Positions 6,920 to 62,873 of a stretch of DNA of 64,000 nucleotides are shown piece by piece (position 1 is the stretch's first letter; every line of letters starts with the position of its first letter). The position numbers and the translations under genes are program-made. Below the pieces are notes generated by a model. The model saw only the letters and a program-made list of their open reading frames with translations. It had not been told where the DNA came from and did no database searches. The DNA is from Patescibacteria group bacterium. Its GTDB lineage: Bacteria > Patescibacteriota > Doudnabacteria > UBA920. Location: contig DAIMCS010000003.1 in assembly GCA_036726225.1 (NCBI GenBank), positions 9,769 to 73,768 on the forward strand, read 5' to 3'.

Positions 6920-7114
6920 GTAAAAATGTATTTAAAGGGCTCCCAAATTTTCTGCTGCGATTTAGTTTTTGGAAAATTTGGGAAGAGGGGCAACGCCCGA
7001 AACGACGGTGAGTCCCGCCTTTGGCGGAACGAACGAAGTGAGGGCGATTGACCCGAGTTCGCCAATACGAACTTTTAGATATAATATATTATCTATGTCT
7101 TTTTGTCAACAAAT

Positions 7115-7141
7115 AAAACCCCGTCTCTAGAACGGGGTTTT
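7115..7141. terminator. bidirectional terminator
   Basis: AAAA-CCCCGT-ctctaga-ACGGGG-TTTT. Confidence 0.6.
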
Positions 7142-7178
7142 AAAGTTTGAATTTGGCCATTTGCATAATGCAAGAGGT

Positions 7179-7370
7179 TTAAAGTCGGGTTTGTGCACGG
7201 TCTGAATATTCAACGTGCGGCTCGGTTGCGCCTCCCCAAAAACCTAAAACAGCGACCACTAAACCTGTAACTACCATTAATGTCCTAGCGCCGCCGGATG
7301 GGATATACATATAGGAAGCCACAATAACCCAAAGGCCCAGGAGGCCATTTAACCATTCTGTCCAAGACAT
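7179..7370 (-). CDS. small two-TM membrane protein
   Basis: Probable start MSWTEWLNGLLGLWVIV. Two hydrophobic helices. Confidence 0.45.
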   Translation of the reverse strand: MSWTEWLNGLLGLWVIVASYMYIPSGGARTLMVVTGLVVAVLGFWGGATEPHVEYSDRAQTRL

Positions 7371-7403
7371 ATATTTTATCCTTTCACAGCACGTATTACG
7401 CAC

Positions 7404-7759
7404 CGTCGCTTTTTTGGGCGGGCAGAGCCCGTCCCTAAAGCGACTTTGGCCAATTGCTTCGTTATTTTGCTGTGGTTTTTTGTCGACGTAGGTTGACTAC
7501 GTCTCCAAAAATCCTCGCAAAATGCCTCGCACTTGGCTCAATGCGTAAGCCGTGCATAAATTGTTTCGACCTTTAAACTAAAATAGGACTCGCGCGTTTG
7601 AAACCTAAGGGTAAGGCTGAAAAGTCAAAATCCTTAAGACTCAAACCTCTGGCGAGGTTTTGGCGCGCAAGTCCTATCATTTAATTTAACGACGGTCGGG
7701 CTATTTTATTTCAATTTTTTTCTACCTTAACAAAACGCTTTTTTGGGCGGTTATTAATT
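7404..7759. other. GC-elevated noncoding region with nested hairpins and a 15-bp direct repeat (CGCTTTTTTGGGCGG at 7409 and 7736). Possible small RNA or insertion scar.
   Basis: No credible ORF. There is a structured module at 7596..7674: GGACTCGCGCG ... CGCGCAAGTCC with three inner hairpins. Confidence 0.3.
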
Positions 7760-7819
7760 TGGTTGACTATTTTCAGCTCTTGTCATAGGATTTATACAAA
7801 TTTAAAATCGGGGGGAAGG

Positions 7820-17469: not shown

Positions 17470-17680
17470 CTGTCCTCCAAAGTTTGAGCTTTGGTTTATT
17501 ATGTCACATAAGATTTTTACTATCAAAAGCTCTTTTGTGGCTGTGGATATGTAATATTTTTTTATGCTTTAAAATCTTAATTAATTTGAGTATTTTGCTT
17601 AAATTTGTTTTAAATAAGCCATTTATTTTTTATCAATCAAAATTTACCCGCCCTTTAGTGTTGACAGGCGTAAAAACCCC

Positions 17681-17708
17681 TTGATTTTACTGGTATTTTT
17701 GCTAAAAT
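17681..17708 (+). promoter_or_regulatory. promoter: TTGATT, 16-nt spacer, TGcTAAAAT
   Basis: Sequence match upstream of hup. Confidence 0.4.
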
Positions 17709-17743
17709 TTAGATATCAATTAATAAACAGCCCTTCAAAAAAC

Positions 17744-17763
17744 CCTGCCGGCCGGCAGGCAGG
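17744..17763. repeat. perfect 20-bp palindrome, family B (CCTGCCGGCCGGCAGGCAGG), in the hup 5'UTR
   Basis: Self-complementary. It lies between the promoter and the hup ribosome-binding site. Confidence 0.7.
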
Positions 17764-17806
17764 CTCCCTAAAGAGGGAACCACAGAGAGGCTAGGAGACA
17801 AAAAGT

Positions 17807-18079
17807 ATGACAAAGTCAGAGATTTTGCAGGCTTTAGCCGACAAATTAGGCAAAACCCGCAAGGAAGTAAGTGAATTTATGGACGCCATGGTAGAATTGG
17901 CTTACCATATAACCAAAAAAGAAGGAGAATTCGTTATTCCTGGCATGGGTAAGCTCCAAAAAAAGCACCGAGACGCTAGAATGGGCCGAAATCCGGCAAC
18001 CGGCGAATCCATATCAATTCCCGCCAAAACAGTGCTTAAATTCCGCGTAGCCAAACAAGCCAAAGACGCTATCTTGTAA
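17807..18079 (+). CDS. hup: HU/IHF-family DNA-binding protein
   Basis: GRNPATGESISIPAKTVLKFRVAKQAKDA is the HU arm signature. The protein is 90 aa. Confidence 0.9.
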   Translation: MTKSEILQALADKLGKTRKEVSEFMDAMVELAYHITKKEGEFVIPGMGKLQKKHRDARMGRNPATGESISIPAKTVLKFRVAKQAKDAIL

Positions 18080-18092
18080 ACAAATAGATTTT

Positions 18093-18126
18093 AATCCCTC
18101 CCTAATATGGGGAGGGATTTTAATTT
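18093..18126 (+). terminator. terminator hairpin (family A-like: AATCCCTCCC-taatatg-GGGAGGGATT)
   Basis: 10-bp stem followed by TTAATTTT. Confidence 0.55.
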
Positions 18127-18155
18127 TCCCCATTTTATGGTATAATATTACAAAT

Positions 18156-18258
18156 GTCCCGTTAGAAAAATTTTGTGGCCAAATATCAGCCCAAGTAATT
18201 TTAACGGTTTAATTATTTTCTCTAAAGAAACAAAATAAAAGCATTTTCCAACGGGATG
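18156..18258 (+). promoter_or_regulatory. 5'UTR with a 5'-end TCCCGTT complementary to AACGGGA at the start codon. TGgTATAAT -10 at 18138..18146.
   Basis: Same architecture and motif as the TerC-like 5'UTR. Confidence 0.5.
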
Positions 18259-21686: not shown

Positions 21687-21917
21687 ATGGAGATTTTAAT
21701 AGTTGTAGGTATAGTAGTTGCCTTGTGGGTCGGCGCAAAAATTCATTTGCTTATGGCAGCGATCACAGTGATTGTTTTTGTACAGGTTTTTTTGGTTCTC
21801 GGTGTGATAAGGAAAGGGGAAGTGGGGGCCAAAGCAAAGCTGGTTTTAATCACATGTATGGTTGCCTTAGTTGTTATTTGGGCAACCTTAATTATTGACC
21901 AGACCGGTATGCGATGA
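21687..21917 (+). CDS. small two-TM membrane protein
   Basis: AGGAGGGG ribosome-binding site, then MEILIVVGIVVALWVGAKI... Confidence 0.4.
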   Translation: MEILIVVGIVVALWVGAKIHLLMAAITVIVFVQVFLVLGVIRKGEVGAKAKLVLITCMVALVVIWATLIIDQTGMR

Positions 21918-25857: not shown

Positions 25858-26112
25858 ATGGCGCAAAAAACCAAAGAAGCTGACCCGGCAACGCTGGCAG
25901 ATATTGTTGATTCACGGGCCGATCAGGTTACGGAGCTTTTAAACATCCCTGGGTTTGAAGGCACCGACCTAATGGTCGCAAAAATGAGCAATGGGTTAAG
26001 CATTCTCTGCAGCAAAAGTCAAAATTTCTCGGTCGGGGATAAGGTTCTTGTGATGAGTGTCTGTTGCCCGAACAACAAATATGGCTCATGCCATGTTTTG
26101 AAGAAGGCTTAG
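25858..26112 (+). CDS. hypothetical small protein with a Cys-rich C-terminus
   Basis: GGAAGGAGGG ribosome-binding site. 84 aa ending VLVMSVCCPNNKYGSCHVLKKA. A terminator hairpin follows at 26115..26150. Confidence 0.4.
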   Translation: MAQKTKEADPATLADIVDSRADQVTELLNIPGFEGTDLMVAKMSNGLSILCSKSQNFSVGDKVLVMSVCCPNNKYGSCHVLKKA

Positions 26113-30351: not shown

Positions 30352-30381
30352 AAAAGCTCCAACTGCTTAGTTGGAGCTTTT
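30352..30381. terminator. bidirectional terminator
   Basis: AAAA-AGCTCCAA-ctgcttag-TTGGAGCT-TTTT. Confidence 0.6.
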
Positions 30382-31630
30382 AAATTAAATCTATTTGTTT
30401 TGTTTTCCTTAATCCCCTAACAAGGGCAGGTAAAATTTTTAACAGGTAATCAATATCTCTCTTTTGGGTAGATTTTCCTAAGGTAAACCGAATGCTGCTT
30501 TTAGCTAACTTTTTTGAATGACCGATCGCTAATAATACGTGTGACGGGTCGAGCTGACCTGTGCTGCAAGCGCTTGCTGTTGAGGAATTTATGCCATAGC
30601 TGTCTAAATAAAACATCAACGACTCCCCTTCCGTATTTTTAAAGGAAAAGTTGACGTTATTGGGTAATCTAAACAATGGTAGATAAAAATCGCGGCCGCG
30701 ATTTTTATCACCTTGATTTAAGGTAGGTCCATTTAAAATTGCATCCGGAATCTGTTTGCTTATTTCAGAAATTAGACGGCCGCTTAGTTTAAAAAGTCTT
30801 AGATTTTCTTTTTGCTTTTTTTTTGAAGCTAACTCGAGCGCTTTGGCCAAACCCACTATCCCCGTAACATTCTGTGTGCCGCTACGCAGCCCATTTTCCT
30901 GCCCGCCTCCGTAAATTAGCGGTTTAAGTTTGACCCCCGAGCGCACATACAAAAACCCAGTTTGTTTTGGGCCATAGATCTTACTGCCGTTTACCGACAT
31001 TAAGTCTACCCCAAGCCTGTTTACATCAAGGTCTAAAAATCCGGCAGCCTGGCAGGCATCGGTATGAAAAATTATCCGTTGCAGGTTATTTTTTATCCGT
31101 CTGTTGTTTTCCGCTTTAAGCCATCGTCCAATTTCGGCTATTGGCGCAATAGTTCCTATTTCGTTATTAGCGTACATTATAGAAATTAAAACTGTCTCCA
31201 GCCTTACAGATTTTTTTAGTTGGTCTAAATTTACAAACCCCTCTTTATCTACCCTAACCAAAGTCGTCTTGTACCCTTCCCCTGCCAGGGCTGCAAAAGA
31301 ATTTATAACGCAGTGGTGTTCTGTTGCCGAAGTAATAAGATGCGTTTTTTTGTGTAGCCGGGCAACGCCAAAAATTGCCAGATTAACACTTTCCGTCCCG
31401 CCGGCCGTAAAAATAATTTCCGAAGGCCTGGCACCAATTAAGTCGGCAACAACAGCGCGCGATTTTTCAACAGCGTCATTAGCCTCCCTGCCTTTTTTAT
31501 AGAGCGATGAAGGGTTGCCAAATTTGTCATTAAAAAAAGGTTCCATAGCCGCTTTAACTTCCGGGTCAACCGGAGTGGTGGCCGCATGGTCTAAGTAAAT
31601 AGTTTTTTTTGGAGTAATTTTTGGCAGCAT
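30380..31630 (-). CDS. iscS: cysteine desulfurase (IscS/NifS class V aminotransferase)
   Basis: PLP-lysine region NGSKIYGPK. Active-site Cys region SSTASACSTGQLDPSHVL. Confidence 0.8.
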   Translation of the reverse strand: MLPKITPKKTIYLDHAATTPVDPEVKAAMEPFFNDKFGNPSSLYKKGREANDAVEKSRAVVADLIGARPSEIIFTAGGTESVNLAIFGVARLHKKTHLITSATEHHCVINSFAALAGEGYKTTLVRVDKEGFVNLDQLKKSVRLETVLISIMYANNEIGTIAPIAEIGRWLKAENNRRIKNNLQRIIFHTDACQAAGFLDLDVNRLGVDLMSVNGSKIYGPKQTGFLYVRSGVKLKPLIYGGGQENGLRSGTQNVTGIVGLAKALELASKKKQKENLRLFKLSGRLISEISKQIPDAILNGPTLNQGDKNRGRDFYLPLFRLPNNVNFSFKNTEGESLMFYLDSYGINSSTASACSTGQLDPSHVLLAIGHSKKLAKSSIRFTLGKSTQKRDIDYLLKILPALVRGLRKTKQIDLI

Positions 31631-31672
31631 AAAAATCTAAGGGTCATTATAGCCCATAAAGCGTGTTTAGAC

Positions 31673-31701
31673 TAGACGCCGGGCTTAATAATTGCTATAC
31701 T
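31673..31701 (+). promoter_or_regulatory. candidate promoter: TAGACG, 17-nt spacer, TATACT
   Basis: Sequence match at the start of the ORF-free region. Confidence 0.3.
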
Positions 31702-31707
31702 GTCTGA

Positions 31708-32224
31708 ACGAAAAACCGCAATCAGCTGCAACTGGATAGTGCTTGGATGCAAAACCTTTCGGTAAGCTTTTTTGAGTTTAGGGGCGCCGATGAAGGTTTC
31801 CAGCCGGCTGAATAAGGACAAACCCCCAATAAAAGGGTCGGCGGATAAAGGAGGAAGTGCACAACGGAGGACCACATCCTGGTTCGTTTCAGCGCAGTTA
31901 ATGTGGACGCGACTTACCCAACCGCGTGTTATACCACTTAATGGTCTAAAACGAGCGCAACAGGCAATACCTGTCATGCATCACATATGCATTATTACGC
32001 ACAACCAAAGGAAAACTGGCTGAAAAGGGCCGGGTACGAGCCGAGTACATTTGGGCCCACGGATAGCCAGGGTTGTCAGGAAAAAGAAACGCCGGGTTTG
32101 TTGAAGTTGCGTATTGGTAATTTAAAATTTTACGCAATTTACAAAAATAGACTTTGGAAGTTTCTGTGTCCAACCACCTTCTTTATTCGCCGCGCGGGCT
32201 ACTTCACAGCCGCGCGGTTTTTTT
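31708..32224 (+). ncRNA. candidate large structured noncoding RNA of about 520 nt, class unassigned
   Basis: No credible ORF; only short overlapping basic ORFs. GC is elevated relative to the AT-rich intergenic norm. Many local hairpins. It ends in a plus-strand intrinsic terminator, CCGCGCGG-N12-CCGCGCGG-TTTTTTT, at 32190..32224. Confidence 0.35.
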
Positions 32225-32621
32225 ATTTGCTGGATTTTATGTAGCCTGCCGCCACCGCTTCTTTTTCTGTATTAAAACACTGTTCGGCATTGGTGCGTTC
32301 GTAAAACGCGCCGCCCTTAATGTGGTAAATTTTTTTGCCACCCGAAGCAATGTTCCCTTTTATTAAGCAATCTGAAACGGCCGTTCCGGTCGCAGCTCCT
32401 GCCACTATCCCCTGCTGGGCGGCTACATCGGCCGCTGGTTTTTTCGCTTCCGCCGTGGTATAATTATTTTGTTTCTTATAAGCATCCCGTCTCATCCCCT
32501 TTTCATAGCTACCGGTTCCAAAACCCACAAAGAAAACAACTACAAAACTTGCCGCAATTATGAGCTTAGTTTTGTTTTCTTTTTCTCTTACCCAGCTTTT
32601 TAGTTGTTCGTAGGTTAGCAT
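32223..32621 (-). CDS. membrane-anchored hypothetical protein with a C-terminal KGNIxxGGKKIYHxKGGxxYxxT...EAxAAGY domain
   Basis: N-terminal TM segment IIAASFVVVFFVGFG. The C-terminal motif is recognisable, but I cannot name the family with confidence. Confidence 0.45.
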   Translation of the reverse strand: MLTYEQLKSWVREKENKTKLIIAASFVVVFFVGFGTGSYEKGMRRDAYKKQNNYTTAEAKKPAADVAAQQGIVAGAATGTAVSDCLIKGNIASGGKKIYHIKGGAFYERTNAEQCFNTEKEAVAAGYIKSSK

Positions 32622-46853: not shown

Positions 46854-47007
46854 AAATTTTCTCCTTCGTGGTACAAACCCTATCTGTCATCCCGACCGAT
46901 CCGCCGAAGGCGGAGAGCGGAGGGATCCCTTAATTTAAGAGATTCCTCGGCTTTGGCCTATTGGCCTGGCTCGGAATGACACAAACAGGTCCCACAAAAT
47001 TAATAAA
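46854..47007 (-). promoter_or_regulatory. rplK-rplA intergenic leader, possible L1 autoregulatory site
   Basis: On the coding strand: GGGAUCCC, a CCGCC-UUCG-GCGG tetraloop hairpin and GGGAUGACAGAUAGGG, followed by an AAGGAG ribosome-binding site. Confidence 0.3.
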
Positions 47008-62280: not shown

Positions 62281-62575
62281 TTTTATTTTCTTTAAGTGGC
62301 GTCATCCTGAGCGTAGCGAAGGATCTTTTTTTGAGATGCTTCACTTCGTTCAGCATGACGCCGATATTTGTAGTATATAAAATTTTTCCTAAAAAGACAA
62401 AATAAAACCCTCTCTGTCAAGCTCAGAGAGGGATCCGTGTCGACCCGCCAAAGCGGCGCCGATTTGCTTCCAAGAAAAAAATAATTTTTTGCAAAAGAAG
62501 AAGCCCCGTCCTAAGCTACGGGGCTCTTTTGGTCATCCGCGCCTTGTTTTTTACACTGCTTAGGAAGCGGCTTTA

Positions 62576-62675
62576 ATCCGGTGGATTCATTCAAACCTCC
62601 TCGGGCTTGCTTTGCCCGAAATGGCGTAAAAAATCGGCCGTGTGAGTAAAAGACTCTTAATCCGGTGGATTCATA
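62576..62675 (+). promoter_or_regulatory. two copies of an 18-nt imperfect palindrome TTAATCCGGTGGATTCAT (62576..62593 and 62658..62675) upstream of aspS, operator-like
   Basis: AATCC-GGT-GGATT inverted-repeat core. The copies are 82 bp apart. Confidence 0.4.
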
Positions 62676-62873
62676 GTGCCCTTTTGTGGCGGGTACTTAC
62701 ACCCAGATTACTGCACTCAGTTGCTTCATATGCCCTCCTTGGTCACTCCTTAGACCCTCTTATAGATTGGGTCTTAGGAATATTATACAAATTTGCCGTT
62801 TAAGTCAAGGCTTGTTATAATAAATTAAATTAATTTCCCTGCCGATTGTTTATCGGATTTAGGGATAACACAT

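Follow-up and report, generated by a model that had tools for sequence, protein, structure and literature searches.

The RNAs OLE, ROOL, GOLLD, raiA and HEARO are several hundred nucleotides (nt) long, strongly structured and lineage-restricted, and OLE adjoins a gene for a small membrane protein. In type I toxin mRNAs such as hok and AapA1, which are structured, patchy in distribution and fast-evolving, pairing with the distant 3' end, beside the terminator, conceals a strong Shine-Dalgarno sequence. STAB-SD elements, such as the 5' stabiliser of cryIIIA in Bacillus thuringiensis, carry an untranslated Shine-Dalgarno sequence far from a start codon, which is thought to pair with the 3' end of 16S rRNA. 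Here we compare with these systems a predicted RNA of about 518 nt (31707-32224, plus strand) encoded in a stretch of 64,000 nt from a Patescibacteria group bacterium (contig DAIMCS010000003.1; this whole stretch is called the window below). It lies in the gap between a nifS/iscS gene and a gene for a 132-amino-acid (aa) protein with a 'sunset' domain, both on the minus strand. Its promoter-like site, terminator, predicted fold and relatives make us confident that this is a real, independently transcribed, structured noncoding RNA gene, and we are likewise confident that its family is absent from Rfam 15 and from the accessible literature.

An equivalent unit is present in 13 other lineages (L145, L146, L092, L098, L088, L099, L103, L097, L105, L112, L113, L114 and L119), and the host range of the family so far is a Doudnabacteria-like clade of Patescibacteria only. 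Its invariant element, found by k-mer comparison, is the octamer AAGGAGGA, identical to the Shine-Dalgarno core, which in the window lies at 31848-31855 and is the sole plus-strand copy in all 64 kb. This octamer is the only k-mer common to all 13 full-length members analysed (L103, added later, has two sites), and it would be expected 0.006 times per 450-nt gap. L088 and L099 have variants at the terminal site (AAGAGGGU and AAGGAGAA, respectively), and these two, like L103, carry the exact octamer at a second, upstream site that pairs with a CCUCCUUCU stretch.

In every member the octamer strand, usually with GGCGG-like purines before it, has as its partner a U/C-rich strand (UCCUUYUU...CCGCC) that lies immediately before the terminator; the two form a helix that closes the 3' part of the RNA with duplex energies of -23 to -44 kcal/mol and with frequent G-U pairs opposite the octamer. 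The window's 5' (purine) strand is CGGCGGAUAAAGGAGGAAGUG (31839-31859) and its 3' (pyrimidine) strand CCACCUUCUUUAUUCGCCG (32174-32192), the last nucleotides of which also begin the 5' arm of the terminator; RNAduplex gives -29 to -36 kcal/mol for the pair. The flanks of the octamer vary by lineage and the partner strands vary accordingly. Because MAFFT alignments of the stitched helix strands and of the short 3' modules were out of register, a permutation test of cognate against non-cognate duplexes replaced alignment-based covariation for these strands. Cognate duplexes averaged -26.7 kcal/mol versus -21.3 kcal/mol for non-cognate ones, a mean that 0 of 20,000 permutations reached, and for the window's 5' strand the cognate 3' strand ranked best of 14. 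The family is clearly under selection for structure.

The fold of the whole transcript points the same way. The plus strand has a minimum free energy (MFE) of -178.9 kcal/mol (z = -5.73 against dinucleotide shuffles, with none of 100 shuffles as good), the minus strand a z of -2.75, and the units of four other lineages have z scores of -6.7, -8.6, -4.65 and -6.5. The MFE structure and the family comparison together suggest a 5' domain (31707-31838; about 130 nt), predicted to form several hairpins and variable in size and sequence in the family (about 70-390 nt in relatives), followed by the closing helix and, inside it, a multi-helix domain of 314 nt (31860-32173); across the family the enclosed region runs from 14 to 314 nt. 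A strain variant of the window RNA (L083) has three substitutions, two in a predicted loop and a third that turns an A-U pair into G-U, and the predicted structure is preserved. In the two alignable sub-families (L146/L092/L098/L145/L112 and L088/L099/L103/L105), RNAalifold gave many pairs of internal helices that are kept through changes on both sides, in proportions of 13/56, 10/36 and 35/111.

One could still take the gap for a non-functional spacer whose features are chance or remnants, given that the promoter score alone is near the scan background (see below) and that an imperfect 12-nt inverted repeat brackets the unit. We disfavour this reading and give it almost no weight, because fold z scores run from -4.7 to -8.6 in five lineages, the octamer is invariant in 14, the strands of the helix co-evolve, and a promoter and a terminator are conserved at the ends. 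The features of the gap are not a chance pattern.

The ends of the RNA are predicted from these two signals. The promoter-like site (31673-31701, plus strand) consists of a -35 element TAGACG (31673-31678), a 17-nt spacer and a TG-extended -10 element, TGcTATACT (31693-31701), whose hexamer TATACT at 31696-31701 puts the predicted start near 31707. It scores 9/12 in the promoter scan, with the TG extension present; because that scan found 5 sites where 3.1 were expected, the window promoter is weak evidence when taken alone. The relatives have much better promoters at the equivalent place: each of their units begins with a sigma-70-type promoter, TTGAC[AT]-17-TAnnnT, and often the TGA stop codon of the sunset gene lies inside its -35 box. 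The scan also listed a promoter-like site on the minus strand at 32172-32144. At the other end, each unit in the family closes with an intrinsic terminator, which in the window (32190-32224, plus strand) reads CCGCGCGG(GCU)...(AGC)CGCGCGG followed by U7 and abuts the stop codon of the convergent gene. Its parts are CCGCGCGG at 32190-32197, a 12-nt spacer at 32198-32209, CCGCGCGG again at 32210-32217 and T7 at 32218-32224, the final two Ts of which belong to the stop codon of the 132-aa gene (32223-32621, minus strand), and the extended hairpin has an energy of -19.2 kcal/mol. The terminator is specific to the plus strand, because on the minus strand the palindrome is followed by CGAAUAAAGAAGG and not by a U-run. 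The loop limit of 8 in our terminator scan is the sole reason why the scan missed this hairpin with its 12-nt loop.

The region had first been singled out by a model that read the letters of the window and proposed an unannotated large structured noncoding RNA on the plus strand. That original prediction holds up well at the level of the locus: a gap of about 590 bp with these strands and boundaries is correct (the gap measures 592 bp, 31631-32222, and the coordinates agree), and the GC elevation is borne out, with 0.475 in the transcript and 0.466 in the gap against 0.424 in the window, which puts the transcript at the 90th percentile of 518-nt windows and second highest among the 17 gaps longer than 120 nt. 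The plus-strand-only terminator with seven Ts is exactly as claimed. Its TAGACG-17-TATACT promoter is present, with a TG extension, yet taken alone it stands near the background of the scan. The central claim is supported by the fold z score, by the 13 syntenic relatives and by the co-evolving long-range helix. Beyond the reach of that single-sequence reading were the invariant octamer, the overlap of its helix with the terminator and the inversion of the window copy with respect to all its relatives.

Is this, then, a known RNA that had been missed? Rfam 15 was scanned at three stringencies: the gathering score for the whole window and four further loci, E<=10 for L146, L092 and the region of the window RNA, and E<=1 for seven further loci; queries at E<=10 were 366-801 nt long. 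At the gathering score the 64-kb window yielded two tRNAs only; at E<=10 the window region gave only terminator-driven noise such as LhrC and atoC, and no family match appeared in the four loci at the gathering score, in L146 and L092 at E<=10 or in the seven further loci at E<=1. ARAGORN found neither a tRNA nor a tmRNA in the RNA region of the window or of 12 relatives' loci. On this ground RNase P RNA, tmRNA, 6S RNA, SRP RNA, OLE, ROOL, GOLLD, HEARO, raiA and the known leaders were all rejected. That no housekeeping RNA could be recognised by eye, as the original prediction had stated for RNase P, tmRNA, SRP and 6S RNA, is thus confirmed by Rfam 15 and ARAGORN, whereas its suggestion that size and context fit a large ornate class finds no support, since no covariance model of OLE, ROOL, GOLLD or HEARO matched.

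A very divergent housekeeping RNA nonetheless deserves a closer look, because the size fits and because two resemblances to RNase P RNA can be seen by eye: the window string GAGGAAGUGCAC resembles CR-I (GAGGAAAGUCC), and GUG(U)CCAU/AUGGCAC in L146 resembles P4 with its bulged U. The CR-I-like string is, however, the 5' strand of the nested helix that pairs with 32174-32192 and not part of a P4 pseudoknot, CR-IV and CR-V are missing, and we saw no ACAGAA..GGCUUA element in the window RNA; RNase P was therefore rejected on inspection as well as by Rfam. For tmRNA, a tRNA-like domain was sought by ARAGORN in the window and 12 relatives and not found, in addition to the lack of an Rfam match, and the covariance models of 6S and SRP RNA gave no match. 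The slot is empty in many relatives, so that the RNA is not universal in its clade, and the sequence evolves far faster than that of any housekeeping RNA. We regard the housekeeping explanation, for RNase P, tmRNA, 6S or SRP RNA alike, as close to refuted.

The likeness to OLE, ROOL, GOLLD, raiA and HEARO is one of size, strong structure and lineage restriction, and for OLE also of a neighbouring gene for a small membrane protein, here the sunset gene. In contrast to those RNAs, which gave no covariance-model match, this family has a hypervariable body and not an ornately conserved one, and they have no counterpart to its octamer, which equals the Shine-Dalgarno core and sits in a helix overlapping the terminator. 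Because every membership test for the families it resembles came out negative, we rate the RNA as a probable new class, known from one clade with conserved synteny. Literature searches on noncoding RNAs of Patescibacteria, the sunset domain, the anti-Shine-Dalgarno sequence in Patescibacteria and RNA motifs of Doudnabacteria returned nothing relevant in the accessible literature, and no paper on a structured RNA family specific to Patescibacteria was found there.

A perfect Shine-Dalgarno core that the 3' end of the RNA ties up in a helix, close to the terminator, is what one would look for in a type I toxin-like mRNA or another message for a small protein, and the patchy distribution and fast evolution of the family would suit such a message too, as would open reading frames (ORFs) of 85-101 aa that some gene callers annotate here. 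The claim that the region is ORF-free calls for a caveat: the gap does hold mechanical ORFs, of 101, 83, 85 and 75 aa, but they have no Pfam match and none is conserved in the homologous RNAs. A conserved coding frame was looked for in the homologues and none was found: six-frame peptides compared across members had nothing in common except in the near-identical pair L099/L103, which agrees in several frames, and ORFs that start after the octamer differ among members in start, frame, length and sequence, none being conserved and none both hydrophobic and conserved. In the window, a GUG 1 nt after the octamer opens a 14-codon ORF; across the family there is no start codon at a conserved, workable distance. 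The toxin mRNAs thus share with this family a Shine-Dalgarno sequence sequestered by long-range pairing near the 3' end, and differ from it in that no conserved small hydrophobic ORF follows the octamer here. We rejected leader-peptide, protein-coding and type I toxin readings alike on the unconserved ORFs and unshared peptides, and consider a small-protein message very unlikely. In two relatives (L088, 4867-4949; L146, 942-1229) an ORF just after the octamer crosses the terminator and stops at or overlapping the start of nifS, the overlap in L088 being AUGA; other members show no such arrangement, and these two cases are probably coincidence.

The relatives were reached through the sunset protein. 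Loci anchored on nifS in 80 GTDB genomes do not keep the synteny and show no DNA similarity to the gap (a 28-nt BLAST match in L051 was dismissed as chance, lying as it does inside a 1250-aa ORF), whereas loci anchored on the sunset protein keep the order CTP synthase, L27, methyltransferase, sunset gene, gap, nifS, with a gap of 330-590 bp after the sunset gene in many of them. A sunset-domain scan of viral contigs gave domain-level matches only and no orthologous loci. The relatives' RNA bodies are 300-490 nt long with a GC content of 0.47-0.53, and the family as a whole spans 300-520 nt and is hypervariable. Nhmmer links L146-L092-L098-L112-L145 and, separately, L088-L099-L105. By eye, the window and L145 have short elements in common, such as CCUGGUUC and ACUUAC. 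MAFFT could not align the window, L088 and L092 meaningfully in either orientation. Across the gap, seven independent assemblies of this species share 99.5-100% identity, too close for a covariation signal; all have the unit in the inverted orientation. The features by which we would define the family, namely position in the gap between the sunset gene and nifS, an own promoter-like site and terminator, a single AAGGAGGA on the 5' strand of the helix, and a 3' strand that abuts and overlaps the terminator, are all found in the window copy, in the opposite orientation.

That overlap brings in the strongest alternative. All 14 members have an overlap of 3-10 nt between the helix's 3' strand and the 5' arm of the terminator (5 nt in the window, 7-10 nt in L112 and L145), so that the 5' strand can pair with these 3-10 nt and helix and terminator are mutually exclusive there; the upstream purine element is often near-identical to the 3' arm of the terminator (GCGGUGA in L145, GCGGG in L098, CAGUGGUG versus CAGCGGUG in L114). 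Read from the sequences, the arrangement has the three-element layout of antiterminator/terminator switches, and one could envision a cis-acting leader that conditionally terminates transcription ahead of nifS/iscS. The long helix would then be the antiterminator, sequestering the first 3-10 nt of the terminator's 5' arm, and termination would follow once a 30S subunit, a protein or another RNA took hold of the AAGGAGGA strand and so released these nucleotides, while the window copy would be a displaced or decoupled version, now running antisense into the sunset gene. The layout recurs in all 14 members despite their sequence divergence, with a 5' element that nearly equals the terminator's 3' arm, both being complementary to one stretch; 13 of the 14 copies are co-oriented with the two flanking genes and stop 15-45 nt short of the nifS ATG; and where the RNA is absent, nifS directly follows the sunset gene.

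Riboswitches, T-boxes and attenuators share this layout, and most copies of the RNA do stand directly upstream of nifS/iscS as a leader would. Unlike riboswitches and T-boxes, the family lacks a conserved aptamer, specifier or T-box sequence and matches no Rfam leader: in 300-520 nt nothing is conserved beyond the invariant AAGGAGGA, which does not resemble leaders that sense a ligand or a tRNA, and the helix encloses anything from 14 to 314 nt. In 11 of 13 relatives, by a count made by eye, nifS has a TATAAT-like box 5-11 nt ahead of its ATG, and since this box lies downstream of the RNA's terminator, nifS would have its own promoter of the leaderless type; in the window a -10 TATAAT for nifS is seen at 31646-31651 (minus strand). 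The window copy alone is inverted, against the convergent gene, and has still lost none of the family features: promoter, octamer, helix, overlap, terminator and strong fold are all present. The association with nifS is itself weak evidence, because all examples come from one clade in which synteny is conserved on both sides. A leader for nifS is in our view possible but rather doubtful.

An imperfect 12-nt inverted repeat, GGCAGCATAAAA (31623-31634) and TTTTATGTAGCC (32235-32246), 10/12 (83%) complementary, brackets the inverted RNA unit of the window. No other flanking pair was found, and although this one may be a remnant of the inversion, it is indistinguishable from a chance match.

We favour, with modest confidence, a free-standing RNA that acts through a Shine-Dalgarno mimic, because the inverted window copy is intact, because nifS has its own promoter, and because a ligand-sensing leader would not be expected to be so large and so hypervariable. 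In such an RNA the octamer would be the functional site, a putative mimic of a ribosome-binding site, and its pairing to the U/C-rich strand, weakened by wobble pairs, may gate its access to the anti-Shine-Dalgarno tail of 16S rRNA or to a protein of the same specificity. Since the helix and the terminator draw on shared nucleotides, the balance between release of the RNA and read-through would shift if the octamer were occupied while the RNA is being made. STAB-SD elements offer a partial precedent in that their Shine-Dalgarno sequence is also untranslated; they are short, single-stranded parts of mRNA leaders, whereas the octamer of this family is base-paired, stands 70-390 nt from the 5' end and has no conserved ORF downstream. 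A more specific proposal is that the RNA is a ribosome sensor or sponge, the invariant AAGGAGGA serving as a decoy for the anti-Shine-Dalgarno tail of free 30S subunits. Binding of a 30S subunit during transcription would then keep the antiterminator helix from closing, and the ratio of released RNA to read-through, which in most lineages would run into nifS, would report ribosome availability. If true, this would be an intrinsic-terminator switch with the ribosome as its ligand, or else a trans-acting anti-Shine-Dalgarno sponge; we think this specific proposal unlikely.

The setting of the octamer in its genome bears on any such role. Most genes in the window have no Shine-Dalgarno site, and several have TGnTATAAT about 7 nt before the ATG, a leaderless layout (e.g., 27817, 32621 on the minus strand and 31630 on the minus strand). 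Where true Shine-Dalgarno sites do occur, which is rare, they read AAGGAGGG; two of them precede the small ORFs at 25859-26112 and 21688-21917 (both on the plus strand).

Several observations weigh against a free-standing family of ribosome-binding-site mimics, and we set them out together. The genome's own Shine-Dalgarno sequence is AAGGAGGG and that of the RNA is AAGGAGGA; the eighth base of the octamer is an invariant A, and the usual 16S tail would prefer a U at that position. Both ends of the window RNA are predicted. Nhmmer gives no match between the window RNA and its relatives, and no sequence alignment of them is possible; a covariance model built from L146 and L092 recovers only its two seeds, and co-variation across the whole family was seen only in the closing helix. 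Since its body is unalignable, the window copy is assigned to the family by position, architecture and octamer. The co-orientation of 13 of 14 copies upstream of nifS, taken with the terminator overlap, has the look of a cis-acting leader. Finally, the RNA is absent from the slot in L144, L095, L101/L102, L109, L110, L115, L117 and L164, while L090/L107 have a rearranged locus; the 811-kb contig JAXOUH010030583.1 is an example of a genome with no copy in this slot. Because the RNA is missing from the slot in at least 10 related lineages, with absences scattered over the sunset-protein tree, it would be dispensable or mobile within genomes.

The two neighbouring genes are more readily named than the RNA between them. 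The desulfurase gene (30380-31630, minus strand) encodes a cysteine desulfurase of the NifS/IscS type (Pfam Aminotran_5, 9e-65), and its match to the NCBIfam NifS model (9e-130) falls under that model's curated cut-off. The 132-aa protein (32223-32621, minus strand) has a single N-terminal hydrophobic segment, seen by eye in the sequence, and a C-terminal 'sunset' domain (NCBIfam NF051437, 4.6e-15); it is predicted to be membrane-anchored (Pfam ArfC), and PF27542 is precomputed for its homologues. In NCBIfam the sunset domain is also found fused to ribosomal proteins L17, L20, L4 and S2 of the candidate phyla radiation. Judged by homology, these two proteins place the window in Patescibacteria, with a 'Candidatus Doudnabacteria' entry among the best homologues of the 132-aa protein.

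Elsewhere in the window, other noncoding segments drew our attention. On the minus strand at 62488-62810 lies a second candidate RNA or leader of about 300 nt, with a TTGACT-17-TATAAT promoter and a terminator, GCCCCGUAGCUUAGGACGGGGC, with a U-rich tail; its fold z is -4.5, it has no Rfam match, and it contains mini-ORFs led by Shine-Dalgarno sequences, MKQLSAVIWV* and two identical MNPPD* (ATGAATCCACCGGATTAA). At 46854-47007 (minus strand), a 154-nt gap with a GC content of 0.49 separates ORFs of 140 and 227 aa, L11- and L1-sized by length alone; in this gap GUCAUUCCGA...UCGGGAUGAC form a long-range helix, behind which lies one of the window's few Shine-Dalgarno sites; no Rfam gathering score was reached there, and the segment looks like a candidate autoregulatory leader of ribosomal proteins. 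Two long gaps, 6920-7762 (843 nt, GC 0.44) and 17527-18255 (729 nt, GC 0.37), hold short ORFs only and have no Rfam match; a hydrophobic ORF of 74 aa lies in the first of them at 7179-7403 (minus strand).

Patescibacteria, also known as the candidate phyla radiation, make up a large share of bacterial diversity, and here the single absolutely conserved element of an RNA family looks like a ribosome-binding site in genomes that mostly do without such sites and favour leaderless genes. Should the RNA serve the cysteine desulfurase gene as its leader, terminator switches would gain a new type of unusual size. Either way, the family can be tested, with 14 sequences, predicted ends and a clear mutational target in the octamer (AAGGAGGA to AACCAGGA). 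If the octamer contacts the ribosome or a translation factor, the RNA would offer a view of how minimal cells tune translation or couple it to transcription.

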